Positions 1-32,000 of a stretch of 32,000 nucleotides of DNA are shown here, piece by piece (position 1 is the first letter of the stretch; each line of letters begins with the position of its first letter). The notes under the pieces were generated by a model that was not told the origin of the DNA, did not search any database, and saw nothing but the letters and a program-made list of their open reading frames with translations. The translations under genes and the position numbers were made by a program. Source of the DNA: Candidatus Omnitrophota bacterium (lineage in GTDB: Bacteria; Omnitrophota; Gorgyraeia; 2-01-FULL-45-10). Where the stretch lies: positions 117,689 to 149,688 of the forward strand of contig JAMWCX010000001.1 of NCBI GenBank assembly GCA_023818895.1, written 5' to 3'.

Positions 1-247
1 TCGAGCCCGTGGTTGAATACCGCACATGGCCTATGGCCGTATGGCCTTTGAGTTTCTTGAGGTTGGTCTCGGTAAAGACTTCACCTACATGGCCCATTCC
101 CTTTTGCTGGCTTACCTTTTTACCGTCGAAACTTACAATGCCGGCTGATTCTTCTCCGCGGTGCTGGAGGGCATACAACGCCAGATAAGTAAGCTGAGCC
201 GCGTTTTTGTTGCCATAGATACCTACTACTCCGCAGTAATCTCTCAT
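1..247 (-). CDS. purF: Amidophosphoribosyltransferase (PurF), N-terminal 82 codons only; the rest lies beyond the window start
   Basis: Reverse translation from ATG at 247-245 reads MRDYCGVVGIYGNKNAAQLTYLALYALQHRGEESAGIVSFDGKKVSQQKGMGHVGEVFTETNLKKLKGHTAIGHVRYSTTGS. This is the Ntn-glutaminase N-terminus typical of PurF (CGV.G, LQHRG.E, GHVRYST.G). It is absent from the ORF track because it is truncated. It starts 6 nt after the carB stop. Confidence 0.85.
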   Translation of the reverse strand, partial: MRDYCGVVGIYGNKNAAQLTYLALYALQHRGEESAGIVSFDGKKVSQQKGMGHVGEVFTETNLKKLKGHTAIGHVRYSTTGS

Positions 248-253
248 GACCTT

Positions 254-3200
254 CTACTTTTTTAACTTATGGTACTCTTGCAGACTCTTTACCGATGTCT
301 TCGGTTTCTTGATAAGGTTTTCTATGCCGTTTACAGAGGCCTGAGCGCCGGACAGAGTGGTGATAAGGGGGACGTTGTAGAGTATGGCGTGAGAGCGTAT
401 CTTAATCTCGTCCTCCTTTGTCGTTTTCCCAGCCGGTGTGTTTATTATAAGGTTTACCTTGTTGTCCTTGATCAGGTCTAGTATATTGGGTCTACCCTCG
501 TGTAGTTTTGGCAGGACCTGTACGTCTATATCGTTGGATTTAAGCGCGTCTGCTGTGCCGGAAGTGGCCATTATTTTGAATCCCAGGTCGGCTAGCTTCT
601 TGGCCACGAAAACTATGTTGCGTTTGTCCTGGTTCTTGACGCTTATGAAGACGTTGCCCTTTGTCGGAAGTTTCTGCCCGGCCGCTATCTGGCTTTTAGC
701 GTATGCCATGCCGAAGGTCGAATCTATCCCCATGACCTCGCCGGTTGATTTCATCTCGGGACCGAGGATTGCGTCTACTCCCGGAAACCGAATAAACGGG
801 AATACCGATTCTTTTACGGTGACGTAAGAAGGAACCTTTTCCTTTGTGAAGCCAAGTTCTTTCAATGTCTTGCCAAGCATTATTTTAGTTGCGAGCTTGG
901 CGAGCGGCACACCTATTGTTTTGGAGACGAACGGCACTGTCCTCGAAGCCCGGGGGTTGACCTCCAGTACATAGACGACGTTGTTTTTGACGGCGTACTG
1001 GACGTTCATGAGCCCCTTTACCTTGAGTTCCATTGCCATCGCATAGGTGTTTTTCTTGATCGTTTCGATGATGTCCTTGCCCAGAGTATGCGGGGGAAGG
1101 ACCATGGCGCTATCGCCGGAGTGTATGCCAGCTTCTTCTATATGTTCAAGTATGCCTCCTATGACGCACGTTTGGCCGTCCGCGATAGCGTCGACATCCA
1201 CTTCTATGGCGTCCTCCAGGAACTTATCGATAAGTATCGGTCTTTCCGGAGACGCTTCCACCGCCTTCTCCATATAATCGGCCAGGCTCTTTTCGTCATA
1301 GACTATCTCCATCGCTCTTCCGCCTAAGACAAACGAAGGCCGTACTACTACAGGATAGCCTATCTTCTTTGCCACTTCCTTTGCCTCCTCGAACGATGTG
1401 GCAGTGCCGTTATCGGGCTGGACGAGCTTAAGCTTCTTGAGCATTTGCTGGAAGAGTTTCCTGTCCTCGGCTATATCGATCGACTCAGGGCTTGTACCGA
1501 GGATATTGAGTCCCAGCTTATGTAGGGTGCCAGATATATTAAGAGGGGTCTGGCCGCCGAATTGTACGATAGCGCCGATAGGTTTTTCGATATCGACTAT
1601 GTTCATCACATCCTCTACGGTGAGCGGCTCGAAATATAGCTTATCGGAGGTGTCGTAATCGGTAGAGACAGTCTCGGGGTTGCAGTTTACCATTATCGAT
1701 TCGTATCCTTCTTCACGGAGCGCGTAAGAGGCGTGACAGCAGCAGTAGTCAAACTCTATACCCTGCCCTATCCTGTTGGGACCTCCGCCGAGTATCATCA
1801 CTTTCTTCTTGTTCGAGGATGGTTCGCTCTCGCACTTGGTTTCGTAGGTGGAGTAATAGTAAGGCCGTTCGGCCTTGAATTCGCCGCCGCAGGTATCCAC
1901 CAACTTGTAGGCGGCCTTGATGTTCTTATTTTTTCTTTCTTCTCTCACATCATTCTCCGTTGAGGTAACAAGGAAGGCGATCTGGGCGTCCGAAAATCCA
2001 TATCTTTTTGCTTTTAAAAGCAGATTTTGCGGAATCCTGATACCGTCCTTCTGGTTTTCGTTCCTGTATTTTTTAAGCTCTTCCTCGGTTTCCACTATAT
2101 TCCGTATATTGTCGATGAACCACCTATCGATCTTGCAAAGCTCATATATCTCTTCATTGGTCATACCGAGCTTTATCGCATACCGTATGTAGAAGAGGCG
2201 CTCATCGTTTGGAACGCGTATCTTCTCCTTTATCTCGTTTATAAGGTCAGCTGATGGATTTTTTAGCATGGAGTCGGTTATCTTATCGCGGCCGTCTGAA
2301 CCGAGGCCGAAGCGCCTGGTCTCCGTTGAGCGTATACCCTTCTGAAGGGCTTCCATGAAGTTTCTGCCGATAGACATCGCCTCTCCCACCGCCTTCATAG
2401 AGGTATTAAGAACGCGTGGGGTGCCCGGAAACTTCTCAAAGGCGAAGCGGCATATCTTGAATACGCAGTAATCTACCGTTGGCTCGAAAAATGCCGTTGT
2501 CCTGCCGGTCACCTGGTTCAGTACCTCAGGCAATGTTAGGCCCACGGCAAGCTTCGTGGCAACACGGGCTATCGGGAAGCCGGTTGCCTTTGAAGCGAGG
2601 GCAGAACTTCTGGAGAGGCGTGGGTTAACCTCGATTATGACTATGTGGCCATTGGCGGGGTTCTGGGCGAACTGGATATTGGCCCCTCCTCCGGTAACGC
2701 CGATCTTGCGTATTATCTTTTTTGATAGGTTGACGAATCTTGCGTATTCTTCAGCTGTCAGCGTCTGGGAGGGGGCGACTACTATTGAGTCGCCGGTATG
2801 TATGCCCATTGGATCCACGTTTTCCATAGAGGTTATCATGATTACGTTGTCAACGCAGTCCCTCATCACCTCGAACTCTATCTCCTTCCAGCCGAGCACG
2901 GACTGCTCGACCAATATCTGGTGAACCGGGCTTATTTCGAGGCCTTTCGCCAGGAATGCCTCGAGCTCCTCCTTATTATAAGCTATGGAACCGCCGGAAC
3001 CGCCGAGAGTGTAGGCGGGTCGCAGAATCAGCGGAAAACCTATAGAAAGGCCTATCTTCATTCCTTCTTCGACCGAACGCGCTATTCCGCTCTTCGGGAC
3101 GTCTATACCTATCTCGAGCATTGCCTTCTTGAAAAGCTCCCTGTCTTCGGCACGGGAAATTGCCTGGACGTTAGCGCCAATTGATTCGACGCCGTATTTT

Positions 3201-3526
3201 TTAAGGATACCCTCTTTCATGAGGAAATACGCCAGGTTTAATCCCGTTTGACCGCCGAGAGTAGGTAGTATCGCGTCCGGTCTCTCTTTTTTTATTATCT
3301 CGGTGACAGCTTCAACGGTGAGCGGCTCTATGTAGGTTGCGTCCGCCATATTAGGATCTGTCATAATGGTTGCGGGGTTTGAGTTTACCAGTATCGTGAA
3401 GTAGCCCTCTTCCTTCAGCGCCTTGCAGGCTTGCGAGCCGGAATAATCGAATTCGCATGCCTGGCCTATTATTATCGGCCCCGATCCTATCATCAATATC
3501 CTGTGTATGTCCTTACGCTTTGGCAT
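254..3526 (-). CDS. carB: Carbamoyl-phosphate synthase large subunit, full length (1,090 aa)
   Basis: There are two homologous ATP-grasp halves: [42 protein letters not shown] and [35 protein letters not shown]. An oligomerisation region and a C-terminal MGS-like allosteric domain are also present. The ATG overlaps the upstream carA stop by 14 nt. Confidence 0.97.
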
Positions 3527-4652
3527 ATGCCACCTCGCGATATGATTTGGAATTTTTCTTGATTTTTAGAATGCCACCCCCCTTTTTAGCCATGGAGAGA
3601 AATCGCGGAAAGACCTCATTTATCTCTTCAAAGCCAGGGCTTGCGGGGTTATATTGAACCGACATGAACTTCAAAGTTTTTGATTCCATCGCTTCGATGG
3701 TATCGTCGTTAACGTTGCGCAGAGTTATCGCCACGCTCTTGTTATTTTTGAGAGAGTTTTCATCAATGACATAAGAATGATTCTGCGCCGTTATTTCGCC
3801 CTTGAAAGAAGCGGCCGGCCGCACCGGATAATTTACGCCATGGTGGCCTATCTTGAGTTTTCTGAGCTTGCAACCCATGGCCATGCCGATTACCTGATGG
3901 CCTGTCGCGATGCCTAACATCGGTATTTTGCCAAGAACCGTTTTAACGGTATCCGCTACTTTCGGAAGGCTTATGTCGTTTTCGGGACCGTTCGAGATTA
4001 TCAGACCATCAACTCGCATGCTCAGGATATCGGAGGCGCTTGTATCATAAGGAAGCAATGTTACATTACAATTCAAAATTTTGAGTTGATGTATAAAACT
4101 ATTGAGCATTCCCAGATCCAGGACCGCTATGGTTGGCCCAGATGATCCTGTCTTAAGAGGCGTCGGATGCTTTACGGATATGGCTTTGATAAAGTCTTTG
4201 CCGTTTGTCTTCTGTTGGCTCAATTTCTTCAGCAAGGATTCTTTCTTGAGGTCCGTTGTGGATATGGCGCCGAACATCTCGCCTTTATCGCGTATAGTAA
4301 TAGCGAGCGTCCTGGTGTCGACCTCGCTTATAGCCGTAACTTTTTCTTCTTTGATAAAATCGCATAACGAGCCCTCTGCTTGCCAGTTTGAATATATTCT
4401 GGACTCTTCTTTTATGACAAGGCCCGCTATCCAACATCTCCTCGATTCATTGAATTTTTTGGCAATACCATAATTGCCTATCAACGGATAAGTAAGGACT
4501 AGGATCTTACCCGCATTGCTTGGGTCAGTCATAATCTCCTGGTATCTCACCACAGCGGTATTAAGCACAACCTCGCCGAACCTCTCTCCTGGCTCGCCGA
4601 TAGATATACCTTCGAACGAGCTACCGTCTTCAAGCACTATCATTGATTTCAT
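3513..4652 (-). CDS. carA: Carbamoyl-phosphate synthase small-subunit homolog with a degenerate glutaminase active site
   Basis: The N-domain is conserved ([38 protein letters not shown]). The class-I GATase motifs read GIATGHQ instead of GICLGHQ, and VQYNPASPG instead of FQ.HPEA.PGP. I place the start at ATG 4652 ([10 protein letters not shown]), preceded by GGGAGA at 4657-4662. The ORF-track start at 4667 is a TTG five codons upstream. Confidence 0.85.
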
Positions 4653-4684
4653 ATTTTCTCCCGTCAATCTTATTTATAAAACAA

Positions 4685-10900: not shown

Positions 10901-13900
10901 CCGTTTTTAATGGCCTCGATAATTTTATCCACATTTCCTATGTTTATGTCAATGACGTTCTTGCCCGTAACACTTTTTACGGAAGCGGCGGTAAAACTGC
11001 CAGATATAGATGATGACGGCTCGGCATCTCTTATTCCTGACCAGCCAGTGGGCTTTGCTTCCTGGGGCCTTTCGAGATCGCGGGCTATGGCGGGATCGGT
11101 GGTCTGTTGGGCCGCTGAATCCTGCTTTGTTGCTGAAGGCCTGAGCTCAAGGTTGCCGTTTTTCCTTACGATGAGGAGCTTGTCCCGACCGGCGGCGCCT
11201 ATAGCCGCAAGCATTCTTGTCGGTATCATCAAGCGATTGCCCTTCTGGAGGTTTGCTATAAATTCGCTGTTCGATCCTATGACCGTAAGCATTTCGTTAT
11301 TTTTGGTATCTGTAATAGACTTGCCGAGCAATGGTTTTATTTTCTGTAAGAATTGACCGGCGGGATAGACAATGATGCATCTATCGTAACTTTTGCAGAA
11401 AAGATAAAAAGGTGCCTTGAATTGTGAGGCGAGGCGGGCGGGTATGGCAACTCTGTTATTACTGTCGATAGTTACTTCTGCCAGAATTTCATCCTGGTTA
11501 TCGTTAAGTTGCGCCTTATCGTTCTCAATGGAGTTTTTCTTGTCTTTATGTGATAAGTCGGTGTTTTGGTTTTTGGAAGAAGCATTATTTATTATCACCC
11601 CGAGTATCGAAACTAAAACCAGCCATTTTGTCGATACTGGCATCGTTCTTGATGCTGCGCTGGTGTGTCGGTAGGGTTTCTCTGGTTGTCTGAGCTCAGG
11701 CGGATCTTCTGCTTGGACAGGATAGAGTAGTTGGCCGTTATGGATCATGAGTCTGCTGCCATGGGAATTGTTTGCTTTTATGAGCATAACGTTTTCTATC
11801 ATTCCAAGGTTTTGCAGAGCGCGGTAAATATTTTTTACGGTTCTTAGCCAATGGGGACTGAAGATGCCGCTGTTATCCTCTAAGGCATAGCTCCCTTCAA
11901 GAATATATATCCTTAATCCCATTTTCTCGGTAAAGTTTGCAGCGATAGAATCTTGTATTTCCTGTATAGTGCAAGCTGGCGTGAAATGGGCAAGATAGTG
12001 TTTTCCGTTTTGAGGATCGTCTATTGCTAAACCAGCGCATGTGCCGACGTTGTCGATGTATAAAGGGATATCGCGGGAGTTGATTTTGTAGCTCATCATC
12101 GGAACATATACCGCATTCGTGGTGACGTGGCATATCTCCATTGCTTCTGCTCTTCTCGAGAGGTCTTCCGATAAATTCCTGACCTCTATCGGCGTTATGG
12201 CGTAGTAGCGACAGTCCTTCATGGTATCGAGCAGGCCGAATGGTAGTAGTATCGCTATGGCGAGTATGATGCCGCTCGCAAAGGCGGCTGGCAACTTCAG
12301 CCATTTCAGATGTTGTGCGCGCTTATCACGCTCTCCCCTCTTTTTCTCATACGGCGTGGTTTCATTTTCTCCCTGCACAAAGAAATGGATGAGTTCGTTT
12401 TTTGTTCTGTGATGCCTAAATCCCGATATCGGCTCCTTGAATAGCCTGAAGCCCTCATGCCCCTGAAGTATGAATATGCCGCCGGTTTTTATCTCTTTGA
12501 GTTTATCCACGAGTGCATATTCGACATCGTCCGGAGCACCGCCCATAAAGTAGTAGACAGCATCATACCTACCCAGATCTTCTTTGAGAAAATCCCCCTG
12601 CTTTATAGTGACGCTGCCCGGTTTGATGAGCCCTTCTTTTATAAGTTCATCAAGCATCTCTTTGGCATATGAGACCTTAGACGGGTCCCACTCGACCATC
12701 GTGACCCTGAACCCGAAGACCGACGCCATGAAAAACCCGAAGCTTCCTAGGCCGCCCCCGAGATCTACTATATGTGCGCCTTCTTTGAGGCCCCATTCCC
12801 GCACCGTCGGTCCAACTATGTATTCACTCGAATCCATGAATATGCCGAACGCGTTTTTCGGATCCCTGGAGACATACGGATGTTTCTGTCTGTAGTGTTC
12901 CTTGAAATCTATGAATGCCCTCATCCTCAAATATTGGGCGCGGCTCAGGTTCTCCTTTATGCTGTTTATATACTTTTCTCTGAATAGTTCTTCTCTTCTT
13001 ATTCGGAGCTTTTCGTAGGGTATCGTGCCATCGAGTTCGGCTGAGATATTAAGGGCGTGATGAGCCCATGACGTGAGGGCAAAGAAAGCCACACTTTGAG
13101 GCATGCTCATGAATATCGGTGTGGCCATAACAACAGCATTTAGTAAAGCGATAACCGTTATTTTATACCAGGGCGGCGCCTGCGGCATATGCTTGGCCCT
13201 GAAATAATGCGAGGCAACGAAAAGCGACCATGTTATGGCCGATGCCCAAAGACTTCCGGTGATTGGTGTCAAAATAATGGCTAATTCCCAGAATAACGCC
13301 TGCTCTATGAAAACCTGGGACCAGCTCTTTATCTTTTGTGGCATTGGGAAGGATTCGTCTATCTTGTCGATGAGCCAGGCCAATAGCGGTATCTGTCCCC
13401 ATGCCTCTCCCTCACTAAAATAGTCGGTTTTTGCCTCATCTACATGTGATATAATATTGTCAATATCTTCGTGCAATCCTTTCAGATATGAGCATTTACC
13501 GAAATGCTTAACGAACCATTCTATTGTTTGAACAGGTTCGTAAATGGCAAGATGATTATCGAGAGTGATACCGTCTCGAAGGATTTTCCTGATAGCATCT
13601 GATGCTGCCTTAGACTGAGCCAGTTCTTCTAAAAGTTTTGAACGTGTCTCGCCCTTAAAGAGCTCTAAGATAACAGTTTCTGCCTGCCGGAATGTTGTTG
13701 GATTGAATCGTTGGACGAATGCTGTGAGCATTTGTTCCAGCCGAGCGCGGTTGAACTCATTTTTAGGTGGTGCCTTTTCATAGGCGTATATCTCTGATAA
13801 GAGAAACTCAAAATTGGCATTCATAACATCAGTTTGAAACCTGCTTGCATCATCACGTAGTGCCTGGAGCATTCTTAGTAGTTCTACTATTATATTGTTT

Positions 13901-15471
13901 AGGGCAATATAACGCGAAGCGACAGCTGTCCCGGGAATACAATATTTTTTGAAATCCGATGCCAGTAGGGAATTTAGCCTTCTTAGAGTTGATTCCCGCG
14001 ATAAGAGTACTTTCCAGAAGCTTTCCAAGTCCACCGCCCATCCGATTTTTTTGACCTCGTTAAGATATTTTCTTATATCGGCGTATGTATCCTCAAATAT
14101 GCGTTCAAGGATTTTAATGGTAGGAATGGCGTGATGCGTCTCAGGGTCATTTTCATCATTGAGGTAATCATCGACGTCATCATTGGCGTCATCATCGGGT
14201 GGCTGGGTAATATGTGGCGTCCCCGGCCCCCAGAGGAGGTTCTCGCGATCGTCTTTTTCGTATTCCTTCTCTTTTACATTTGCTGATGCGTTGATGTCGG
14301 ACCTTTGAGCAGGAGGCTTTGTCTTAGAATGACCCAAAAACTTGTCATCGACTTTAGATATGTTTTTGTCATCCTTATCGGCTAAGTTGTGGGTTTTACT
14401 CATCGCGGTGTCTTCGTTTGTTTGTATTAAGGGCATGACCTTTACATAGACATTTGTGCCGTCACCGAGCGGTATCGTCATATCGGCATCTGTGTTTTTG
14501 TCCTCAAGATAATATTTGTAATAATAAGCCTTTACTCCGTTTCTATATAGTGGCAGATAATACGCCTTCTCTTCTTTGTTATAAAATAGTTCGTTTATCG
14601 CCAACCCTGCAAGGAGAGGATCGTTCTTGTTAGCGCGTTTTATATCTACTAAGGATATGTGGCGTTTTATTTCCGGGATAAGAGTATATTGAGATATACT
14701 ATATTGTAGATATTTTCCTATCAGGATACTTATATCCCGAAAGACAGCTTTCTCGCGGAATTCTTTATCGTCAGCGTACGCTATGGCAATAAATTCATTC
14801 TCGGCGAATATCTCAGAGGAGTCGTTTTTTTTAGGGATGCGAAGTTGCGTCTTTGTACCGTCAGCAAAAGGTCGCCAGCTTATCGAGCCGCCTAATCTGC
14901 GCATTGTCAGAGATGCGTCAATAACTCCGGTACCATTGCCTCCAAAATGTTTCTTGAGGTGCTGGGACGACCTTTCCCTTTTTCTGTAAGCTGGAACACC
15001 TTCCTTTAGAAGCTCTATTGGCTTGCCATTATCGATTACATTTATTATCAGTTCGTCAGCGTCATAGTACGCCTCAATTGTGACTACACCTACAAATGAT
15101 ACAATCCCCTTATTGCGCATCTCTTCGAATTTATCAATTATAGAATCATACGAGTTTTTCATTATTTCCATGAGCACATCTTCCATTAGGGGGTTTGTGG
15201 TAAGGCGCTGATATAGCGGGTTTTTCTCTACTTTTGTCTTAAAGTCCGTTTTTGAACGCAAAAATGACGATTCGATTTCCGGGTTGAAATTTATCCGAAT
15301 CTCCGTCCTGGCACCATTTGCAACAGATAGTATAGGGCTAAATCTGCTGGGAGGGGCAAGGTGGTATGTTGCCTCATTGGTCGCAAAACTTAACTCGTTT
15401 AATATCAGGGCAAGAATCAGGAATACAGATATTATTTTTAAAGGCAGGCTTAGTTTGTAATAACTTAACAT
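4936..15471 (-). CDS. Giant multidomain protein (3,511 aa), function unknown. Domain order: signal/anchor, GHKL ATPase, CPBP-like 4-TM block, SAM-MTase, CheD-like hydrolase, MraZ-like domain, GHKL ATPase, SAM-MTase, 2x (helical + GNAT-like), transglutaminase-like core, unassigned C-terminal third
   Basis: A single uninterrupted frame. Motifs seen, by aa range:
- aa 1-30: KLSLPLKIISVFLILALILNELSFA.
- aa 95-214: EIMKNSYDS / VIDNGKP / GGNGTGV...LGGSISWRPFADGTKTQLRIP.
- aa 715-812: EQALFW / FVASH / HHALN in hydrophobic helices.
- aa 880-1005: HIVDLGGGLG / YDAVYYF / TGGIFILQG.
- aa 1113-1251: NVGTCAGLAIDDPQNGKHYLAHFTP.
- aa 1331-1446: IDSNNRVAIPARL and LQKGNRLMIPTRML.
- aa 1560-1663: AEAIKNAFSHG / GGGAGLKTIE / GTRTSLIL.
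- aa 1683-1800: RVLDLMSG / FDAVIITSGMAYVKDP / KRGGILYIAF.
- aa 2140-2250: RGKGIGETVLNWL.
- aa 2575-2665: RRGLGVEVVRWL.
- aa 2750-2812: SCLANSAML...PFHYLVH...EIDLVP. Confidence 0.9.
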   Translation of the reverse strand: MLSYYKLSLPLKIISVFLILALILNELSFATNEATYHLAPPSRFSPILSVANGARTEIRINFNPEIESSFLRSKTDFKTKVEKNPLYQRLTTNPLMEDVLMEIMKNSYDSIIDKFEEMRNKGIVSFVGVVTIEAYYDADELIINVIDNGKPIELLKEGVPAYRKRERSSQHLKKHFGGNGTGVIDASLTMRRLGGSISWRPFADGTKTQLRIPKKNDSSEIFAENEFIAIAYADDKEFREKAVFRDISILIGKYLQYSISQYTLIPEIKRHISLVDIKRANKNDPLLAGLAINELFYNKEEKAYYLPLYRNGVKAYYYKYYLEDKNTDADMTIPLGDGTNVYVKVMPLIQTNEDTAMSKTHNLADKDDKNISKVDDKFLGHSKTKPPAQRSDINASANVKEKEYEKDDRENLLWGPGTPHITQPPDDDANDDVDDYLNDENDPETHHAIPTIKILERIFEDTYADIRKYLNEVKKIGWAVDLESFWKVLLSRESTLRRLNSLLASDFKKYCIPGTAVASRYIALNNIIVELLRMLQALRDDASRFQTDVMNANFEFLLSEIYAYEKAPPKNEFNRARLEQMLTAFVQRFNPTTFRQAETVILELFKGETRSKLLEELAQSKAASDAIRKILRDGITLDNHLAIYEPVQTIEWFVKHFGKCSYLKGLHEDIDNIISHVDEAKTDYFSEGEAWGQIPLLAWLIDKIDESFPMPQKIKSWSQVFIEQALFWELAIILTPITGSLWASAITWSLFVASHYFRAKHMPQAPPWYKITVIALLNAVVMATPIFMSMPQSVAFFALTSWAHHALNISAELDGTIPYEKLRIRREELFREKYINSIKENLSRAQYLRMRAFIDFKEHYRQKHPYVSRDPKNAFGIFMDSSEYIVGPTVREWGLKEGAHIVDLGGGLGSFGFFMASVFGFRVTMVEWDPSKVSYAKEMLDELIKEGLIKPGSVTIKQGDFLKEDLGRYDAVYYFMGGAPDDVEYALVDKLKEIKTGGIFILQGHEGFRLFKEPISGFRHHRTKNELIHFFVQGENETTPYEKKRGERDKRAQHLKWLKLPAAFASGIILAIAILLPFGLLDTMKDCRYYAITPIEVRNLSEDLSRRAEAMEICHVTTNAVYVPMMSYKINSRDIPLYIDNVGTCAGLAIDDPQNGKHYLAHFTPACTIQEIQDSIAANFTEKMGLRIYILEGSYALEDNSGIFSPHWLRTVKNIYRALQNLGMIENVMLIKANNSHGSRLMIHNGQLLYPVQAEDPPELRQPEKPYRHTSAASRTMPVSTKWLVLVSILGVIINNASSKNQNTDLSHKDKKNSIENDKAQLNDNQDEILAEVTIDSNNRVAIPARLASQFKAPFYLFCKSYDRCIIVYPAGQFLQKIKPLLGKSITDTKNNEMLTVIGSNSEFIANLQKGNRLMIPTRMLAAIGAAGRDKLLIVRKNGNLELRPSATKQDSAAQQTTDPAIARDLERPQEAKPTGWSGIRDAEPSSSISGSFTAASVKSVTGKNVIDINIGNVDKIIEAIKNGNAVALNLAYLAEKESAYDDLYDAIMKLSGKLDDAFTDGKSMTPIAEAIKNAFSHGNRADFSKPIFLDIKIDSLAKNTTVDIYDTASRNDNTESRTKAFHAGLWGGGAGLKTIEHCLGAENFHMENVPAIGTRTSLILHYVKSSFSLIDTQSAIPYLEDAATTYIEDYLKDYLPRGARVLDLMSGAFTYVPQSVNASEIIGIGLNRDELNVNAKLTQRIVQDLNANPEFPAEWENHFDAVIITSGMAYVKDPEALISAAAKTLKRGGILYIAFNPDYYSKEATENWKKMRADEKSDFVTSSIRRTRAFYGIEHRTKEYIGRFDLTQQLDIILARKTEETGLLNLTRDEMLKRDEEHWYLGGMDHNSLSVGDVPADDGHGAKNFSPEIQQHIMLSITNFIRNIDKASEIQLVKMEQVITSNIGKLEKSEDVLATMEALAKIWIRLSKISTVPSDAYKSRIAVLTENYLTPVRIFDETIHEKDTYLLIEYIGLARPEDAQTLADLRDEIRKTAPRDMDMDKELQMILEYKLTEDKEKIEKAIASRLAYFDGLKADKKIQAYDYPPSGEGDGPGIPDDMAAPEWVARQNNGHAPFEYIEKDKNGRIRTVTDAFGTIWEEYHYGILWNVIKLRNIKTGAMDIKIKIPSHRGGPIKLYEIVADGRKAGLVNYYKGTNVITTIRVNDRGKGIGETVLNWLIKSAWRNGASHSGISGIVNPALVHIARKLIKQTGDKKPEVENSDSVEYAVMKADFDPFTQDGKHIGRIKVSNGKITACDLPQDLVSYLDEGRIGVREQTSGKEADVVILYEKGRTANIHGAPNPIFATMRRDGIIEHWQEGQKIKEITSATTWLSYEEKLKRDDEHPLLGGMDHTEGTRDALSRNDIKQMAERSYSELAAYLASLNTESQKEAICTALEVIVNLAHDTHYMPCCVNHALITNGLVRACEQNPGLIKVIANRIFDSLQHEDDPLYQMNNQIIAEIVMQLEWLSMNTPGIPRLTQYLGEREGAREIIKALKRCFRIWTEETDRAPLTTLPEEDVEISEEKRLRLRAFDRSWYFLEENEKLVGTLYAFYVNGETTLFKNLRIFDKKDTRRGLGVEVVRWLASQAGPNRFIEYYGIPDETHAAFFLRCARAGIFESVEISYEKAGDDKHQNWIAIKDISELEPILKDSNEVRIRGKISSAIKDGARDRDDNISTLSLTTYVSEISNTSSGSRDGLNTDNSNDIINEIKNAVKSMDLKSCLANSAMLTYILNKLGYEAYLVGMYRKNENIPFHYLVHTVKWGEIDLVPYDGEEEDYEWTDRIPESDHSRGLDYLRSTGYLARADQIVSKYQMAEARIIQWADIDKHADAIRKAIKQQGGRVSFLVHPGQIFTASEKNDIVMANQKEAEIYLSNLRKTISAEKGVVFILGGNYNVLKNISTSAIIVDIPSVPRWGIPATEAALPDSIYDQRRWQPVIATMKKLGVTSLAPFGGEEVRYLANGEILKSPEPDSGCLGGALYALERHFSKIVTMPQVLFGLVNKKLTSIDDESLENLFRSFAPPHYDAGTQHLLLPKTGNSLRKSAEFARLLELLEKDPYFTWTVKGQKVGAYIEYDEIPQEFAIEPTEDTKKAYPELATLDMMASDDYVPSSGLFGVIRLRITEHNKKPALLIYDVQPSLGFRNIQPLEIRQRFYEWNRGAIMHIVRLAQKAGFEYFYASTVEELEDRYTGKLRTPIPNSNLKQNYLYPFRGIWVKVNAEIDGRKTKLWHLQAASEVNAKISDSKTILTEDENKTGSFLQPSDTSGYSPDEQPRAELARIEAVKFSDIVKLIRAANQKEPVILALGTSWIKGYMRGNGPQYADLNQHIIMIRNFCNDRGITFIDREDKDLLSEIAKAREITPAARVVVLASRDTVISREFEYLRNDEKAFLAGVDASGLDESCYMYLTEMLAMALKLGLKDVLAAEDALDNPAVRAEALKDCRNVFIFLPKAERIPVYENLRRLYKVQEFA

Positions 15472-20692: not shown

Positions 20693-22357
20693 TTAATCGG
20701 GGAATGGGATTATTTTCTCGACGGAAAAATTGTGTTCGAAAGCAGTATTGGCTGCTAAATGAGGGGCCTTGAGCTGCGCCTCTTGGCCGCCTTCGGAAAT
20801 TCTTCTGCGCCTGTAATCTTCCAGCGCCCCATCTCTAAGGACTTTCAGCACAGGGCTTTTTAATAGCTGGGCGTTTCTTACATAGTCGTATTCCCTGTCC
20901 TGCCTTCTAAGTTCGCTTTCCATCGATACCAAAAAACGTTTTTTATCCTCTTCGGATAAGTCAGTATTCGCGAATTCCACAAGGAAAGCGTAGCGCGGGC
21001 CTTCCTCGGGGTGCGCAACCGCGCAAAAAAATTTAAGTGAGATATTCTCCATTTTTACGACGTTGCTAAGTGCCGCATTGACATGTGATTCATAAAGTTT
21101 TTCACCTGCCAGGGATGAGGCGCCCTTGCCTTTTTGGACGAACTCTATCATCGGCGTCTTATTGTAGAAGTCGTATACTTTTATTATGTCATCGATGTTA
21201 TATCTGTAGAGTCCGCCCGCTGTGGTTACTACCAGAAAATATTCTTTGTCCTTCTCGAGTTCATTGCATAGTAAAACCCTTTTGCGAGCGCTGTTTTCGT
21301 CTTCGCGCGGTATGAATTCATAAAAATTGGTCTGTATGGCCAGCACTCCGCCGGCGTCGGTGTCATTGATCGGTATCGAGCTTCTGGCCTCGGTGGAAAC
21401 ACAACCCATATCCCTGGTGGGAACTTTGCCAAAATATGACTCCAATTCTTTCAGATATATCCCCATGACGCCGCCCTTCCAGCACTCGATTAGTTTAAGA
21501 TTCGGCCAAATATATCTGGGCATAAGCATGCCGTGTTCTTTTATTATATTTCGAAGTTTGTCAGCTCTACGCTTGTCAGCTTTAAGTCCTTTTTCTATAA
21601 TCCTGCGTATCCGCGAGGGGATATCAAAGTCACCACAGACAGTCCCTTTTTCTATATCCTCTATTATAAGATTTTTCCATTTGTCGATCTTGCGGCATAA
21701 TATGGTTATTGCGTTAGGGTTTAGGGTAGCGATATCGGTTATATCGGCCTGTATGGCAAGGCGTAGTATCGTGTAGTGGCGGGCTTCATACGACTCGATT
21801 TCGAATACCTCATACGGAATAGCGTAAAGTTTTTTTACCGGCCCCGGCAGGGCCTTGTAACTGTAGCCTGACTCAGCGCCGAATAATATTCCTGAAGGAG
21901 TCACCCCTTCTCTTATCGGGCTGACTATCGCCAGGATTTTGCCGTTTGCGACATCGGGATGGTCTCTGGCTATATAGTAACTCCATAGATTCATGAGGTC
22001 ATCTTTTTTTGCTTCCGAATATTTAGTGGTCGGAATTAGCTTCGGCTTGTCTGTTGTGCCGCTTGTTACGCCGAAGAATATCGGCTTGTCTTTTGTGAGT
22101 ATGTTATTTTCGCCGGAGGCCATCCTGTCCACAAGAGGCCTTATATCTTCGTAATCGACCATCGGTACGGAAGATAGATAATCTTTTATAGACCTTATTC
22201 GGCAGAATCCGAACCGTCGGCCGTATTCTGTGTCTTTGTTGCGTCTTATATATTCGAAAAGCACCCTCTCTTGGGCCTTCAAGGGATCGAGTGTGGCCAT
22301 TTCAAAAGCCCTGCGTCGCGGTTCGAGAAGCTTAAATGAGAGGGTGACTATATTCAA
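20693..22357 (-). CDS. GH3-family (auxin-responsive-promoter family) adenylating acyl-acid amido synthetase homolog
   Basis: RFGFCRIRSIKDYLSSVPMVDYEDIRPLVDRMASGENNILTKDKPIFFGVTSGTTDKPKLIP is the GH3 N-terminal signature. The start is uncertain. TTG 22357 has a GGAGG 8 nt upstream and gives a typical N-terminal length. The ORF is open up to TTG 22447, and ATG 22300 is a further option. Confidence 0.8.
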   Translation of the reverse strand: MNIVTLSFKLLEPRRRAFEMATLDPLKAQERVLFEYIRRNKDTEYGRRFGFCRIRSIKDYLSSVPMVDYEDIRPLVDRMASGENNILTKDKPIFFGVTSGTTDKPKLIPTTKYSEAKKDDLMNLWSYYIARDHPDVANGKILAIVSPIREGVTPSGILFGAESGYSYKALPGPVKKLYAIPYEVFEIESYEARHYTILRLAIQADITDIATLNPNAITILCRKIDKWKNLIIEDIEKGTVCGDFDIPSRIRRIIEKGLKADKRRADKLRNIIKEHGMLMPRYIWPNLKLIECWKGGVMGIYLKELESYFGKVPTRDMGCVSTEARSSIPINDTDAGGVLAIQTNFYEFIPREDENSARKRVLLCNELEKDKEYFLVVTTAGGLYRYNIDDIIKVYDFYNKTPMIEFVQKGKGASSLAGEKLYESHVNAALSNVVKMENISLKFFCAVAHPEEGPRYAFLVEFANTDLSEEDKKRFLVSMESELRRQDREYDYVRNAQLLKSPVLKVLRDGALEDYRRRRISEGGQEAQLKAPHLAANTAFEHNFSVEKIIPFPD

Positions 22358-22459: not shown

Positions 22460-24130
22460 TTAGGGATGGTCGTAAGTGGAATAGTAATACGGCGTGAAGG
22501 CCTGGAATTCGGCGGCGCAGGTATCGACAAGCTTAAAATCCGGAATTATATTATGGGACTTCCGCAACGCCCGTATGGAGGATTCATCTGTGCCGATTAG
22601 GCGCGCGAGCTGGGCGTCGCTAAAACCCATCTCCTTGGCGCGGGAGAGCGTCTTTACGGTAATGGATTCTTTTTTTTCAACTATTTCTTTCTCAAGTTCT
22701 ATGACCTCCAGTATGTTATGGAGAAACCAGCGGTCTATTTTTGTTATCTCGTATATCTCCTCTATGCCCATGCCGGCCCTCAAGGCGTCCCCTATATAAA
22801 ATATCCTTTCCGCGTTAGGTGTTCTTAACTTATCTCGTATCAACCGCGCCTGGTCCTCATTTGTTTTCACCTTGCCTAACTCGTCCTTCTTAAAGAGGAT
22901 GCTTTCCAGCCCCGCTTTTTTAATCTCGAGCGAACGAAGGCCTTTCTGCAGCGCCTCTTTAAAGGTCCTGCCTATTGACATGGCTTCGCCCACAGATTTC
23001 ATTGATATGGTAAGCGTCGGGTCGGCTGAGGGGAACTTCTCGAAGGTGAACCGGGGTATCTTTACCACACAGTAATCGATTGACGGTTCGAAACAGGCAG
23101 GAGTCTTTTGGGTTATGTCGTTCGGTATCTCATCGAGAGTGTAGCCGACAGCAAGCTTTGCCGCTATCTTGGCTATCGGGAAACCCGTGGCTTTAGATGC
23201 CAGCGCGGAGCTTCTGGAGACCCGCGGGTTCATCTCGATAACCACCATCCTGCCGGTGTCGGGGTTGACCGCGAACTGGATATTTGAGCCGCCAGTGGCC
23301 ACGCCTATTTCACGTATGCAGGCAATAGCCGCGTTCCGCATTTGCTGGTATTCCCTATCGGTAAGTGTCTGGGCCGGCGCTACGGTAATCGAGTCGCCCG
23401 TATGGATTCCCATAGGATCTAAGTTTTCTATCGAACAGATTATGACAACGTTGTCCTTGGCATCTCTCATCACCTCGAGCTCAAATTCTTTCCAACCTAT
23501 GACGGATTCTTCTATGAGAATTTCGCCTATCATGCTTGAGTCAAGGCCTATCTTAGCCAGGTGCTTGAATTCCTCCATATTGTACGCTATGCTGCCGCCG
23601 GTGCCTCCGAGTGTGAAACTCGTCCGAATTATTATCGGAAATCCGATTGACTCGGCTGCGGAGATGGCTTCTTTTAGCGTGTAGGCCCTTTCGCTTCTTG
23701 GAAGATCGAGACCGATGCGCTGCATAGCTTCTTTAAAGAGCTGCCTATCCTCAGCTTTCTTGATGGCTTTAATATCCGCGCCTATAAGTTCTACTTTATA
23801 TTTTCGAAGTACGTCAGTACGGGCGAGACCGACGGCCGTGTTGAGCGCTGTCTGTCCTCCCAGAGTCGGAAGAAGCGCGTCAGGTCTTTCTTTCTCTATT
23901 ATCTTAGCTACGGTTTCAACAGTAATTGGTTCTACATAGGTGCTGTCCGCCATTTCGGGATCCGTCATTATGGTGGCGGGGTTAGAGTTTACCAGCACGA
24001 CGTGATAACCTTCGGATTTTAGCACCTTGCATGCCTGGGAGCCAGAATAGTCAAATTCGCATGCCTGGCCTATAACTATCGGACCGGCGCCAATTATCAG
24101 GATTTTTTTAATGTCTTTACGCTTGGGCAT
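22460..24130 (-). CDS. carB: Carbamoyl-phosphate synthase large subunit, N-terminal half only (556 aa)
   Basis: It is collinear with residues 1 to about 560 of the full-length carB at 254-3526 ([42 protein letters not shown]...). It ends at ...[12 protein letters not shown]-stop, which is the boundary before the second ATP-grasp half. Its start overlaps the carA stop by 14 nt. Confidence 0.9.
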
Positions 24131-25208
24131 ATCTATTTCGCTTCATCATTTCCACGAATTTTCCAAAAAGATATTCGGCGTCCTTCGGGCCGGGGCAAGC
24201 TTCGGGGTGGAACTGGACGGAAAATATGGGCAGCTTCTTGTGCCGCATTCCTTCTAGCGTTTGGTCGTTGAGGTTTATGTGTGTTATCTCGATCTCTTTT
24301 TTGTTCAGCGTATCTATATCAACGCAGAAGCCGTGGTTCTGCACGCTTATAGCGACCTTGCCGGTCTTCAGGTCCTTGACGGGCTGGTTTCCGCCATGAT
24401 GACCGAAATTTAGCTTGAAGGTTTTGCCTCCAAAAGCTTGGCCGAGCATCTGGTGGCCGAGACAGATGCCGAATATAGGAACTTTGCCAATAAGATCGCG
24501 GGTCGTCTCCACTATATATGGCAGCGCAGCCGGGTCGCCGGGGCCATTTGAAAGCATCAGGCCGTTGGGTTTTAGCGAAAGTATCTCTTTGGCTGTGGCG
24601 GTGGCGGGAACTACCGTCACCTTACAGTTATTTTTAGCGAGTTCCCGCATTATATTGAATTTCGCGCCGCAGTCGAGAACGACAACATTAAGCGCTCCGT
24701 TACGGTTCCATTCATAAGGCTTTTCCGGTGTGACTTCCCTCACAAGATCGCGGCCGATTAGGCCGGCGGAGGCCTTTGCCTTGGCGACGAGACTTTCCTC
24801 GTCCGTATCGGTTGTTGATATCACCGCTTTCATTGCTCCGGCCTGCCTGATATGAAGCGTTAGACTGCGCGTATCGACGCCTTCGATTCCGACGATACCG
24901 TTTTGCTTAAGGTATTCGTCAAGCGTTTGTCTTGACCTCCAGTTGGAAGCTATCTTTGAGTATTCCTTTACGACAAAACCTTCGACAAACGGTTTTCTGG
25001 ATTCGACATCTTCGTCATTTATACCGTAATTGCCGATAAGCGGATAGGTCATGGCGACTATTTGCCCCTTGTAGGATGGGTCAGTGAGGATTTCCTGGTA
25101 GCCCGTTATACTGGTATTGAAGACGACCTCTCCGTACCGCTCACCATACGCTCCGAACGATATGCCTCTGTATACATTTCCATCTTCCAACGCGAGTATT
25201 GCTTTCAT
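24117..25208 (-). CDS. carA: Carbamoyl-phosphate synthase small subunit (glutamine amidotransferase), canonical
   Basis: At 363 aa it keeps an intact triad context: [17 protein letters not shown] and [14 protein letters not shown]. Confidence 0.95.
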
Positions 25209-25265: not shown

Positions 25266-26874
25266 TTATCGTACTTTCCTATGGAGTGAGGCCTTTATGA
25301 AGTCCCTAAAGAGTGGGTGAGGCCTATCGGGTTTTGATTTAAATTCCGGATGATACTGTACAGCTATGAAAAAGGGGTGGTCCTTTATTTCGACCATTTC
25401 TACCAGATTTTTGTTCGGATATATACCGGAAAATACCATACCGGCTTCACCTAGAAGGGAGCGGTATTTATTGTTAAACTCATAGCGGTGTCGGTGTCTT
25501 TCTAGTATCAAGTCCTTGCCATATGCGCGATAGGCAATCGTTCCTTTTTTTATTTCGCAGGGATAAACGCCGAGGCGCATTGTTCCTCCCATGTCTCTTA
25601 TGCTCTTCTGTTCCTCCAATAGGCTGATTACAGGGTGAGGCGTATCTTGATCGAATTCCGTGGAATTAGCTCCTTTAAGACCGCATTTATTGCGCGCGAA
25701 CTCGATTACCGCGCATTGCATGCCAAGGCATAGGCCGAAGAAGGGTATCTTGTGCTCACGGGCATACCCGATCGCCTTTATCTTGCCTTCGATGCCGCGA
25801 TAACCAAAACCTCCGGGAACGAGTATCCCGTTTACGCCTTTGAGGAGCTTCTCGCCTCCGTCCTTTTCAACCTCCTCTGAATCCACTTTTTTTATCTCAA
25901 CGCGGGTATTATTGTATATGCCTCCATGTGTCAGCGCTTCATATATAGACTTATAGGCGTCCTGAAGTCCGATATACTTTCCGACTACCGCTATCTTTAC
26001 GGTATGCTTAGGATTAAGAATACGGTTTACGACCTTATTTTGCCAGTTCTTTAAATCTGTAGTTTTTGAACGAAGTTCTAAATGAGCAAGGATGAACTTA
26101 TCGAGCCCTTGCTGCTTGAATATCAGCGGGACCTGGTATATTGTCTGCGCGTCAGGCGCTTCTATGACAGCCTCTTTACGAACATTGCAGAGAAGAGAGA
26201 TCTTTTCCTTCATGTCGTCTGAGAGGGGTTTTTCGGTGCGGCAGATAAGGATATCCGGCTGGATGCCTATCTCTCGCAGTTTTCCCACGGAATGCTGGGT
26301 CGGTTTGGTCTTTATTTCACCGGCTGATTTTACGTAAGGTATCAGCGTGAGGTGTATGTAGAGGGCATTGCGATATCCGACGTCCAACCGGAACTGCCGG
26401 GCCGCTTCCAGGAATGGCAAACTCTCTATGTCGCCGACTGTCCCGCCGATCTCGACTATCATGATGTCAGCGGCCGAGACCTGTGCGGCCTTCTTGATGC
26501 GCTCCTTGATCTCGTCGGTTATGTGGGGTATAACCTGTTATGGTCTTTCCAAGATAGTCGCCGCGCCTCTCTCTTGAGATGACTGAATTGTAGACCTGGC
26601 CGGTCGTCACGTTGTTAAATTTTGTCATCTGGGCGTTGGTGAACCGCTCATAGTGGCCAAGGTCGAGGTCCGTCTCTGCGCCGTCCTCGGTAACATATAC
26701 CTCGCCGTGCTGATAGGGGTTCATAATGCCGGGGTCTACGTTGATATACGGATCGAGTTTGATGAGCGAGACTTCAAGGCCTCGTGACTCAAGTATCTTG
26801 CCTATAGATGCAGAGGCAATGCCCTTGCCAAGACTTGAAATGACGCCGCCCGTCGTGAATATGTATTTTGTCAT
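25266..26874 (-). pseudogene. pyrG: CTP synthase (pyrG) split by a single-nucleotide insertion, or a sequencing error
   Basis: ORF 26467-26874 encodes [25 protein letters not shown]...RGDYLGKTI and then runs out of frame. Shifting by one base at about 26538-26539 restores [44 protein letters not shown], which continues into ORF 25266-26462. The observed sequence ATAACAGGTTATA would be in frame as ATACAGGTTATA. Confidence 0.85.
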
Positions 26875-30973: not shown

Positions 30974-32000
30974 TTAAAACCCGAAACTCTTCTTAATCCT
31001 CCTATAAAATATCAAGATGATAGTTCCAAGAAGTCCTGCCACCGTTGACGGCTCGGGAACTTCGCCGCCCCCCAGAGGCTGGCCGCCCAGGCCGCCGCCC
31101 AATAGTATGTATTTCACGCCGTTAACTGTAAAAGCATCGCCGGGATTATGGCCGGTCCATATAGGGTCGTCATGAGCGATGTAAGTCCATGTTATACCAT
31201 CTATAACAGCACCGGAAGCGTTCTGGCTTGTATAGATGTCAATAAGTTCGTTGATTTGGGACTGCGTATAATTAAGATTTAAGCTGGAGTTGGCTGTCAT
31301 AAGATATCCTAGTTTTTCGATTGCGGTGGAAAGATCCGTATCGGAGCCGGTAAGGGCATAAGCTCGTCCGACACCCATCTGGCCGACCGCATTTATCTCT
31401 TCTTTAGAGAGCGCCTTAGTCCAAACAGCGGCGTCATCTATTAATCCGTAAAAGCTAGCTTCGTTCTGCCATCCGAAGGCGCCGAAGAACCACCAGTCAT
31501 CAAGCTCGTGATCCCAGCTTGTGCTTGCCACGAGGGTGCCGTTGACGTAAATTTTCTTTAATGGCCGGTCGAAGGTAGTGGCAATGTGATACCATTCGTT
31601 AGAATTCCACACATTCTGTAAGGTATATATATTTTCGTGCGTGTTGTACCAAAAATTAACTGTATGAACAGTGAGTGTTCCAGCGGGATTGCCTTGATAA
31701 CTAAAACCCATAAGAAACGCCCCACCGTATCCAAAAATTGTCTTAAATTGCGTAACAGACGAGTCGATAATGGAATTAGGTTTTACCCATAATGAAACAG
31801 TATAACGTTGGGATGTTTCGGGCGAGTCCCAGCCGCCTGCCAGTGCGTTACTGAGCGAAGAGGTCTCAGCCAATGCGATGCGTATCCTGCTCTTGGGAAT
31901 GCCGAAGTACCCGCTTAATGCCGCTATGACCGCCTCGTTGGCCCTGCCCTCTTTGGCTGGCGCATTGACACGGACGACGAACTCGTTATCGCTTATCTTT
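30974..32000 (-). CDS. LamG (concanavalin-A-like lectin) domain protein with a C-terminal PEP-CTERM sorting signal. The reading frame is open to the window edge and starts with a DUF167-like segment.
   Basis: The C-terminus GGEVPEPSTVAGLLGTIILIFYRRIKK is a PEP-CTERM motif followed by a TM helix and a basic tail. The LamG_3-like core reads YTVSLWVKP...WYHIATTFD...KIYVNGTLV. The track start at 31873 is a TTG, but there is no stop upstream. Positions 31874-32000 translate in the same frame as KISDNEFVVRVNAPAKEGRANEAVIAALSGYFGIPKSRIRIAL, which is DUF167/YggU-like. Confidence 0.7.
   Translation of the reverse strand, partial: KISDNEFVVRVNAPAKEGRANEAVIAALSGYFGIPKSRIRIALAETSSLSNALAGGWDSPETSQRYTVSLWVKPNSIIDSSVTQFKTIFGYGGAFLMGFSYQGNPAGTLTVHTVNFWYNTHENIYTLQNVWNSNEWYHIATTFDRPLKKIYVNGTLVASTSWDHELDDWWFFGAFGWQNEASFYGLIDDAAVWTKALSKEEINAVGQMGVGRAYALTGSDTDLSTAIEKLGYLMTANSSLNLNYTQSQINELIDIYTSQNASGAVIDGITWTYIAHDDPIWTGHNPGDAFTVNGVKYILLGGGLGGQPLGGGEVPEPSTVAGLLGTIILIFYRRIKKSFGF

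Follow-up and report, generated by a model that had tools for sequence, protein, structure and literature searches.

Why would a bacterial genome hold, beside a carA-carB pair with a full-length carB, a second pair in which an intact carA is followed by only the N-terminal half of carB? This question is raised by a 32,000-nucleotide stretch of DNA (the window) from a Candidatus Omnitrophota bacterium (assembly GCA_023818895.1, contig JAMWCX010000001.1, positions 117,689 to 149,688), in which the carA, carB, purF, and pyrG genes described here lie on the minus strand. A preliminary description had explained the two loci as the complementary degeneration of a duplicated operon. Our comparison with relatives suggests that the four genes, namely carA2, carB-N, carA1, and carB1, constitute a system that is old and stable in one Omnitrophota clade, and that the arrangement probably opens two routes to carbamoyl phosphate, one fed by glutamine and the other by ammonia.

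[quoted passage not shown] Only CPSase_L_D1, D2, and D3 were found, corresponding to the pre-ATP-grasp, ATP-grasp, and oligomerisation domains, and the match to NCBIfam NF003671 covers profile positions 1-542 of 1058. The protein aligns collinearly with CarB1 residues 1-562 (59% identity) and ends at the inter-half linker, 2 residues past YYSTY, with its TAA stop at 22460-22462; Pfam and the alignment therefore agree with the half-length, the clean stop, and the collinearity that had been described. carB-N is thus a stand-alone N-half gene (CPS.A) of the kind that characterizes a split CPS. That no C-half adjoins it was likewise borne out. The next gene belongs to the GH3 family; its mechanical ORF begins 12 nt past the carB-N stop, its start as called in the twin assembly GCA_023818765.1 lies 102 nt 3' of that stop, and a tblastn search of the window 3' of carB-N returned no C-half relic.

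The stop at 22460 might reflect faulty assembly or sequencing, or carB-N might be a decaying fragment, and a 1-nt frameshift in pyrG indicates that indel errors or real frameshifts do occur in this window. However, contig JAMWDH010000038.1 of the independent assembly GCA_023818765.1 matches the window at 99.926% identity over 8099 bp, with 6 SNPs and no gaps, and encodes an identical 556-aa protein. Dozens of Omnitrophota orthologs (more than 40; 550-562 aa, 79-86% identical) all terminate at the same point. Compared with 58 canonical N-halves, CarB-N has 2 changed conserved sites and no more, at a dN of approximately 0.14 with dS saturated, and its catalytic, ammonia-gate, and carbamate-tunnel residues are all canonical. 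The stop is real, and an artefact or a pseudogene is scarcely conceivable. To judge from this conservation, carB-N is a real gene for the carboxyphosphate/carbamate-forming half of CPS.

The neighbouring carA2 (24117..25208), which overlaps carB-N by 14 nt, encodes a canonical glutaminase small subunit with the Cys-His-Glu triad intact (GICLGHQ...QFHPE). CarA2 scored 516 bits against TIGR01368 (cut-off 307) and shares a mean identity of 60% with canonical CarA; both the motifs and the score are those of an active class-I glutaminase. The gene arrangement indicates that carA2 and carB-N are co-transcribed. The CTP synthase gene pyrG (25266..26874), in which the frameshift lies near 26530, is located directly upstream of carA2, and the order pyrG-carA2-carB-N is kept in five loci of relatives (L002, L004, L006, L008, and L172). 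GDH and glutamate-synthase-like genes occur near carA2-carB-N in the window, and glnA and gltBD occur near it in L006.

At the other locus, carA1 (3513..4652; probable ATG start at 4652, with a mechanical ORF that begins from a TTG at 4667) overlaps carB1 by 14 nt and encodes a pseudo-glutaminase small subunit. Cys269 is replaced by Ala and His353 by Asn, and Glu355 is lost (GIATGHQ...QYNP-A), leaving none of the three residues required of a CPS II small subunit; the earlier statement that locus 1 had lost its glutaminase triad was accurate. The CarA1 family has more than 100 Omnitrophota members, and the triad is missing in every member examined, with Ser, Ala, Gly, or Val at the catalytic Cys position. 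CarA1 still scores 357 bits against the TIGR01368 cut-off of 307, so automatic annotation under current NCBIfam thresholds mislabels these pseudo-glutaminases as "glutamine-hydrolyzing". A synthetase without a functional glutaminase, which the absence of the CarA1 triad implies, is what is expected of an ammonia-dependent CPS.

CarB1 (1090 aa, aligning to E. coli CarB 1-1055) comprises a divergent, strongly conserved N-half, termed N' (residues 1-562; 1841..3526), and a linker plus C half (254..1840; C half proper 565-1090; stop 254-256). It carries the two ATP-grasp halves, carbamate tunnel, and MGS-like allosteric domain of a CPS II large subunit, and the C-half catalytic motifs were judged intact by eye on the E. 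coli CarB alignment. ATP-site and carbamate-tunnel residues are all retained in N', as they are in CarB-N. Nevertheless, N' differs from the 58 canonical N-halves at 22 clade-fixed sites, and 14/14 N' sequences carry the substitutions C232T, T249V, and R265V; R265 is, we assume, the position of the tunnel-wall 'perforation' mutant. Cys occupies position 232 in 58/58 canonical sequences and in 43/43 sequences of CarB-N, and CarB1, with Thr at this position, departs from the Cys232-Ala251-Ala314 ammonia gate while retaining A251 and A314. This gate is documented (PMC8674909, PMC6241538, PMC4655335). Because human CPS-I keeps the Cys-Ala-Ala gate and mutating the gate costs the E. coli enzyme its activity with glutamine and with ammonia (PMC4655335), the significance of C232T in N' could lie elsewhere than in simple ammonia use.

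The end of purF, the amidophosphoribosyltransferase gene (5' end, 1..247), lies directly downstream of carB1. The canonical Omnitrophota order is carA-carB-purF(-pyrG), and carA1-carB1-purF therefore preserves the ancestral synteny, including the carB-purF linkage. The pair carA1-carB1 is also present in L007, L009, L010, L013, and L090-L097, and the MAG GCA_023818765.1 has carA1-carB1-purF-guaA. carB-N and carA1-carB1 share one contig in the window and in L008 only, where the order is pyrG-carA2-carB-N...DUF1846-carA1-carB1-purF-guaA-purL, and they share one MAG in GCA_023818765.1. A metagenome scan with the universal TYPLIGNY motif returned at least 8 CarA1 loci, with carA2/carB-N within 10 kb in 0 of those listed.

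The only C-half within the window is residues 565-1090 of CarB1, encoded 19 kb from carB-N, and a stand-alone C-half gene (CPS.B) is absent from the window. In L002, L004, and L006, a stand-alone C-half of 514-546 aa occupies the carA1-carB1 slot. Stand-alone forms accounted for 88 of the 117 classifiable sequences among the best 120 C-half matches, in a set of homologs that held no proteins longer than approximately 1000 aa and is biased toward stand-alone forms. The gene orders thus indicate that many relatives have an Aquifex-type split carB, with the stand-alone C-half where carA1-carB1 sits here. The high frequency of such genes in the clade would suit an ordinary split carB in this genome as well, with a separate C-half gene elsewhere and carA1-carB1 merely an extra paralogous CPS. 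However, the stand-alone C-half of relatives adjoins purF upstream, in the slot that carB1 fills here; the CarB1 C half nests among these proteins in the tree and is 87-91% identical to them; and in no locus examined did a fused C-half occur together with a stand-alone one. We consider an ordinary split carB very improbable; the C-terminal half of CarB1 is orthologous to the stand-alone C-half of relatives. The C-half in CarB1 also sets this genome apart from a half-size CPS, in which no C-half partner is encoded.

All trees were built by neighbour-joining only. In the C-half tree, fused and stand-alone forms are intermingled in clade A (100% bootstrap) and again in clade B (99%), and monophyly of all stand-alone C-halves received 0% support, indicating that carA1 and N' together were lost at least twice. 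No alignment column except in the linker separates fused from stand-alone C-halves. Relics of carA1 or N' were not detected 5' of the stand-alone C-halves of L002, L004, L006, L014-L016, and L018 by tblastn at E<1; in L058, the sole such case, an N-half tail of approximately 60 residues remains upstream of a stand-alone C-half.

The same comparisons revealed that the two loci are not decaying. Between the window and L008, dN was 0.108 for N', 0.077 for C, 0.143 for CarB-N, 0.171 for CarA2, and 0.319 for CarA1. Across all four genes, dN ranged from 0.05 to 0.32 and dN/dS was at most 0.055 where computable (0.055 for carA1), dS being saturated in most pairs, so that the usable values are dN and three or four ratios. 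By dN, evolution is slower in N' than in carB-N. Strong purifying selection acts on CarA1 and on N', each a monophyletic family, and the four genes, all of them ancient and low in dN, are conserved throughout a large Omnitrophota clade; "degeneration" was consequently the wrong word. The complementarity itself is present: of the two paralogous carA-carB units, one is without the glutaminase triad and the other without the C-half. Given the relatives with a stand-alone C-half in the carA1-carB1 slot, duplication with complementary loss is the best account of the split gene.

The trees did not add to the case for a duplicated unit, because N' as sister of CarB-N and CarA1 as sister of CarA2 each received 0% bootstrap support. 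N' and CarA1 lie instead on long branches outside the canonical sequences (95% and 100% support), and since they are not sisters of CarB-N and CarA2, they may have been acquired horizontally. We rejected this placement as a guide to their origin, since long branches fit accelerated evolution and foreign origin alike. Foreign origin would also be predicted if the polarity were reversed, with the three-gene split ancestral and the fused carA1-N'-C form produced by acquisition and in-frame fusion and spread by transfer. Against such a reversal, the gene order carA-carB-purF known from canonical Omnitrophota survives at the fused locus; N' is monophyletic (100%), and its tree is congruent with that of the C-half; and the fused forms in both deep clades would call for repeated precise fusions or whole-gene replacements, compared with simple deletions. 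The reversed order of events seems distinctly unlikely.

The carA/carB junctions had been taken as an argument that the unit was duplicated as a whole. Both junctions do share the 14-nt overlap ATGCCNAAGCGTAA, and the two carA genes end in YAQA and YAKA before the stop. The overlap arises because the CarB start MPKRK is conserved, and the junctions in orthologs of both loci vary (YA or HAKAN before the stop, or no overlap). We therefore rejected the overlap as being weak evidence of unit duplication.

On the basis of these findings, we propose a partial operon duplication followed by subfunctionalisation. An ancestral carA-carB-purF operon would have given rise to a second copy of carA and the carB 5' half, now beside pyrG, and this copy (carA2-carB-N) would have stayed canonical in sequence. 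At the original locus, carA would have lost its triad (CarA1) and the N-half would have changed its ammonia gate (N'), with the C-half remaining canonical. Several lineages would then have deleted carA1 and N', which would yield the Aquifex-type three-gene split CPS. CarA1/CarB1 would be a complete, allosterically regulated synthetase taking free ammonia, like CPS-I or Bacteroides CarB2, and CarA2/CarB-N would be a glutamine-dependent module in which CarB-N pairs with itself (N-N) and, as a half-size synthetase, finishes the reaction. In this scheme we infer the direction of the original duplication, the ammonia dependence of CarB1, and the second phosphorylation by CarB-N; the scheme as a whole has, in our view, about an even chance of being correct.

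How CarB-N completes the reaction has another possible answer. If paired CarB-N were self-sufficient, lineages with a stand-alone C-half could do without that half, but it is strongly conserved in them, which favours N-C pairing, at least there. Glutamine-fed CarA2/CarB-N might accordingly dock in trans onto the CarB1 C-half, with ammonia-fed N' acting in cis, so that two N modules share one carbamate-phosphorylating domain. CarB-N forms a single, uniformly constrained family of orthologs across genomes with a fused C-half and genomes with a stand-alone one; in the stand-alone lineages it must pair with C; and its carbamate-tunnel residues are all kept. The C-half sequence, moreover, is unchanged upon N' loss, and that loss was apparently tolerated repeatedly. 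Nevertheless, a tethered N' should out-compete free CarB-N for the pseudo-dimer interface; N', slower-evolving and with intact tunnel and catalytic residues, evidently uses the CarB1 C-half; and such sharing is without structural precedent. We regard a shared C-half as unlikely, and we are equally doubtful of the modular CPS that it would create, in which glutamine-fed CarA2/CarB-N in trans and an ammonia-fed, pseudo-glutaminase-scaffolded N' in cis would be two nitrogen-entry modules for one carbamate-phosphorylating domain. If true, the nitrogen source would be set by which N-half engages the C-half, and no earlier bacterial CPS would have had an inactive small subunit of its own; the system would also preserve an intermediate stage in the splitting of an essential gene.

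Under partial duplication and subfunctionalisation, the loci would form a natural series for splitting an essential multidomain gene without loss of function, from a canonical operon through a partial duplicate plus full-length copy to a three-gene split, with the intermediate preserved and the last step having happened at least 2 times. The large conserved family of bacterial CarA pseudo-glutaminases, partnered with a gate-altered CarB, bears on the view that all bacterial CPSs are glutamine-dependent (PMC8121099). CarB-N would further offer a natural test of half-size CPS synthetases working alone in vivo.

Among known systems, the CPS of Aquifex aeolicus comprises three subunits, GLN, CPS.A, and CPS.B (Ahuja et al. 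2001, as reviewed in PMC6022934). Like it, the genome described here has a separate N-half gene ending at the same inter-half linker together with a glutaminase subunit predicted to be active, and L002, L004, L006, and many other relatives have exactly its three-gene layout. Unlike it, the C-half here is fused to a second, divergent N-half preceded by a pseudo-glutaminase gene, giving two N-halves and two small subunits per one C-half. PMC6022934 also reports that CPS.A and CPS.B of Aquifex, when isolated, can each carry out both partial reactions, and it mentions a half-size homodimeric CPS. In such homodimers, which include the isolated Aquifex halves and a 41-kDa protein of Methanobrevibacter smithii, one half performs both ATP steps, and this precedent underlies our proposal that CarA2/CarB-N can work alone; however, they have no C-half partner or were tested in vitro, whereas here a C-half is always kept somewhere in the genome.

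B. thetaiotaomicron uses CarAB at low ammonium and an orphan CarB2 at high ammonium (Liu et al. 2021, PMC8121099), CarB alone being ammonium-dependent (PMC8121099). The present genome similarly has two CPS systems, one with an active glutaminase near nitrogen-assimilation genes and the other without a working glutaminase and proposed to take ammonium directly. In contrast, CarAB of B. thetaiotaomicron has a full-length CarB, whereas the glutamine-linked unit here has only half, and CarB2 has no small subunit, whereas the glutaminase-less unit here retains a conserved inactive CarA. Human CPS1 (PDB 5DOT/5DOU; PMC4655335) resembles CarA1/CarB1 in its glutaminase-like module without the catalytic Cys (Ser in CPS1) and in the two intact ATP-grasp halves and allosteric domain that CarB1 also has. 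However, CPS1 is a single N-acetylglutamate (NAG)-dependent polypeptide that keeps the triad His and Glu and the Cys-Ala-Ala gate, whereas in CarA1 the whole triad is gone and N' carries C232T. The system described here is a variation on split CPS and dual CPS, both already known.

We determined gene order and domain content from an ORF listing of the 32,000-nt window, in which every gene lies on the minus strand. Starting at the highest coordinates, a PyrK-like gene and a GltD-like gene are followed by GDH, pyrG (25266-26874, as two ORFs), carA2 (25208..24117), which encodes a small subunit of carbamoyl-phosphate synthetase (CPS) with the Cys-His-Glu triad present, and carB-N (24130..22460), which encodes only pre-ATP-grasp, ATP-grasp, and oligomerisation domains. 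Below carB-N are a GH3-family gene, Dus, YjbQ, a holin-like gene, a 132-aa ORF, DUF1846, a 3511-aa ORF (4936-15471), carA1* (4652..3513), whose product has lost the Cys, His, and Glu of the triad, carB1 (3526..254), and the start of purF (247..1). CarB1 is collinear with carB-N (59% identity) and extends into a second ATP-grasp half and an MGS-like allosteric domain, and a 14-nt overlap is common to both carA/carB junctions. Re-deriving domains, collinearity, triad states, and overlap confirmed every factual sequence statement of the preliminary description.

Contig JAMWDH010000038.1 of the independently assembled MAG GCA_023818765.1 (the twin assembly) aligned with 8099 bp of the window (6 mismatches, 0 gaps) and encodes the identical 556-aa carB-N protein; another contig of this MAG carries carA1*-carB1(1090 aa)-purF-guaA. 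A protein search revealed dozens of carB-N homologues of 550-562 aa (79-86% identity), and all those with an organism name were from Candidatus Omnitrophota. The gap-free twin assembly and the same-length homologues ruled out an artefact at the carB-N stop, and the dozens of same-size Omnitrophota homologues indicate that the half-size carB is a conserved lineage feature.

Several other genes of the window were also inspected. pyrG is broken into 135-aa and 398-aa ORFs by one extra A at 26520-26540, where the window reads ATAACAGG and alignment to PyrG of the related locus L002 implies ATACAGG (…GKTIQVIPH…); this site is not covered by the twin assembly, and the break reflects an indel from sequencing or a true frameshift in a gene that is essential. 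The GH3-family (adenylate-forming amido synthetase) gene (20693-22357) follows carB-N in most close relatives (L001-L005, L171, L172), not in L006 or L008, and its top NCBIfam match is the lyso-ornithine lipid synthetase OlsH (97 bits, cut-off 620). The 3511-aa ORF has weak methyltransferase-domain matches only; its slot holds giant genes in relatives (4541 aa and 2017 aa in L009, >1667 aa in L171), and very long Omnitrophota proteins are the subject of bioRxiv 10.64898/2026.06.07.730766. A Laminin_G_3 (concanavalin-like) protein (30974-31873) ends in ...PEPSTVAGLLGTIILIFYRRIKK, which by eye looks like a PEP-CTERM sorting signal.

The CarA1* family comprises >100 Omnitrophota proteins with 49-76% identity and was monophyletic with 100% bootstrap support in neighbour-joining (NJ) trees. 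Its members have Ser, Ala, Gly, or Val in place of Cys269 and Asn, Tyr, Asp, or Cys in place of His353, and Glu355 is absent from every member examined. CarA1* nevertheless exceeds the TIGR01368 cut-off (357 vs 307 bits), and many family members, P0146, P0161, and P0173 among them, bear the database name 'glutamine-hydrolyzing carbamoyl-phosphate synthase small subunit' though triad-less, a systematic mis-annotation.

N', the N-half of CarB1, is likewise monophyletic (100%), with 75-91% identity inside the clade and only 54-59% to canonical N-halves, compared with 63-69% for CarB-N. Between the window and L008, dN was 0.108 for N', 0.077 for the CarB1 C-half, 0.143 for CarB-N, 0.171 for CarA2, and 0.319 for CarA1*; dS was saturated, and dN/dS was 0.026-0.055 where computable. 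These low values indicate purifying selection on all four CPS genes, none of which is decaying, and N' is under tighter constraint than carB-N. At positions at least 90% conserved across 58 canonical N-halves, CarB-N showed 2 departures and N' 22 clade-fixed ones. Both retain all the ATP-site residues (R129, R169, E215, H243, N283, Q285, E299, N301, R303, R306) and all the carbamate-tunnel residues checked (I18, I20, A23, E25, M378, V381, E383). C232T, T249V, and R265V occurred in 14/14 N' sequences. R265 is said, in work by Kim and Raushel from 2004, to lie on the ammonia-tunnel wall. C232, unchanged in 58/58 canonical and 43/43 CarB-N sequences, forms with A251 and A314 the rate-limiting gate of the E. 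coli ammonia tunnel (PMC8674909, PMC6241538, PMC4655335). The three substitutions thus concentrate the divergence of N' on the nitrogen's path to the first active site, which matches the lost glutaminase chemistry of its CarA1* partner.

Three CPS gene layouts were found among the Omnitrophota loci compared. Type 0 (canonical) is carA-carB(N-C)-purF(-pyrG), as in L023, L029, L034, L047, and others. Type I, the fused layout of the window, is pyrG-carA2-carB-N ... DUF1846-carA1*-carB1-purF-guaA-purL; it is complete on a single contig in L008, and its carA1*-carB1 portion occurs in L007, L009-L013, and L090-L097. Type II is pyrG-carA2-carB-N ... stand-alone C-half (520-530 aa)-purF, found in L002, L004/L005, L006, L014-L016, and L018. 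Its C-half occupies the exact slot of carA1*-carB1 and shares 87-90% identity with the CarB1 C-half (up to 91% among protein-search matches). The best 117 classifiable C-half matches comprised 88 stand-alone forms and 29 fused fragments, a search that yielded no proteins > ~1000 aa and so under-counts complete fused genes. Because the fused locus keeps the type 0 carA-carB-purF order, it descends in position from the canonical operon; carA2-carB-N is probably the copy that moved.

In an NJ tree of C-halves with bootstrap support, each of two deep clades (A, 100%; B, containing the window, 99%) held both fused and stand-alone forms, and monophyly of all stand-alone C-halves received 0% support. 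A tree of 153 sequences likewise had the two forms intermixed throughout. The N' tree was congruent with the C-half tree, and no C-half alignment column outside the linker distinguished the two forms. Most simply, the ancestor of the clade would have had the four-gene state with the fused carB, and carA1* and N' would have been deleted independently at least 2 times. Since no relic of either was found at the stand-alone C-half loci of L002, L004, L006, L014-L016, or L018, this polarity rests on parsimony and synteny. Sister relationships of N' with CarB-N and of CarA1* with CarA2 each received 0% support, and N' and CarA1* fell outside the canonical sequences, both on long branches; these NJ trees fit either a speed-up after duplication or a foreign origin. 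Whole-unit duplication had been argued from the shared 14-nt overlap, which is weak evidence because orthologous junctions vary (YA*, YAKA*, HAKAN*, or no overlap) and the conserved MPKRK with which CarB starts produces the overlap as a side effect. The earlier interpretation is supported in part: duplication with complementary loss holds, but the data do not support degeneration, given the purifying selection on all four genes, or duplication of the whole unit as read from the overlap.

Three further loci carry unusual carB genes. In L019 (11657-14845; titled Omnitrophota) and L022 (11447-14635; titled Planctomycetia), a second, divergent full-length carB lies directly downstream of canonical carA-carB (N-half 50-52% and C-half 59-63% identical to the window), a duplication of a different kind. 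A 631-aa C-half ORF in L058 (9704-11596) begins with the tail of an N-half (its last ~60 residues; 54% identity to CarB-N 495-556), so the split point may differ here, or a deleted N-half may have left a relic. The mid-contig 898-aa carB of L170 (1478-4174, P0285) is without the first ~190 residues; its N part is CarB-N-like (72%) and its C-half shares 80% identity with that of the window, and the gene may be a canonical carB of the split clade that has been truncated or frameshifted.

The residue patterns indicate one active glutaminase, CarA2, predicted to be translationally coupled to a canonical N-half, and one complete synthetase, CarB1, which has an altered ammonia gate and a small subunit predicted to be unable to hydrolyse glutamine. 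CarA1*/CarB1 would be an ammonia-dependent, allosterically regulated CPS, for which precedents exist: E. coli CarB can use ammonium by itself, B. thetaiotaomicron relies on an orphan CarB2 when ammonium is high and on CarAB when it is low (PMC8121099), and CPS I retains an inactive glutaminase-like domain (PMC4655335). However, CPS I has kept the Cys-Ala-Ala gate, and mutating the gate in E. coli causes loss of activity with both nitrogen sources (PMC4655335), so C232T may signal something other than plain ammonia use. CarA2/CarB-N would supply the glutamine route. For carbamate phosphorylation, CarB-N might pair with itself or dock onto the CarB1 C-half; isolated Aquifex halves each perform the two partial reactions, and there is a report of a homodimeric CPS of half size (PMC6022934). 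Self-pairing is favoured in the window's genome because N' is tethered to the CarB1 C-half and evidently uses it. In type II lineages, however, the C-half is strongly retained, which favours N-C pairing once N' is gone.

The surroundings of carA2-carB-N, with GDH and glutamate-synthase-like genes in the window and glnA-gltBD in L006, resemble the B. thetaiotaomicron high-affinity ammonium locus. Taken alone, the carB-N half gene is of the Aquifex split-carB type, and the close relatives with the type II layout have an ordinary split carB of this type. The window differs in that a separate C-half gene is absent within it, the only C-half there being part of CarB1. To the known split carB, this arrangement adds two components that were described in none of the literature searched: a conserved bacterial CarA that is a pseudo-glutaminase, and a second N-half that has a modified gate and is joined to the only C-half.
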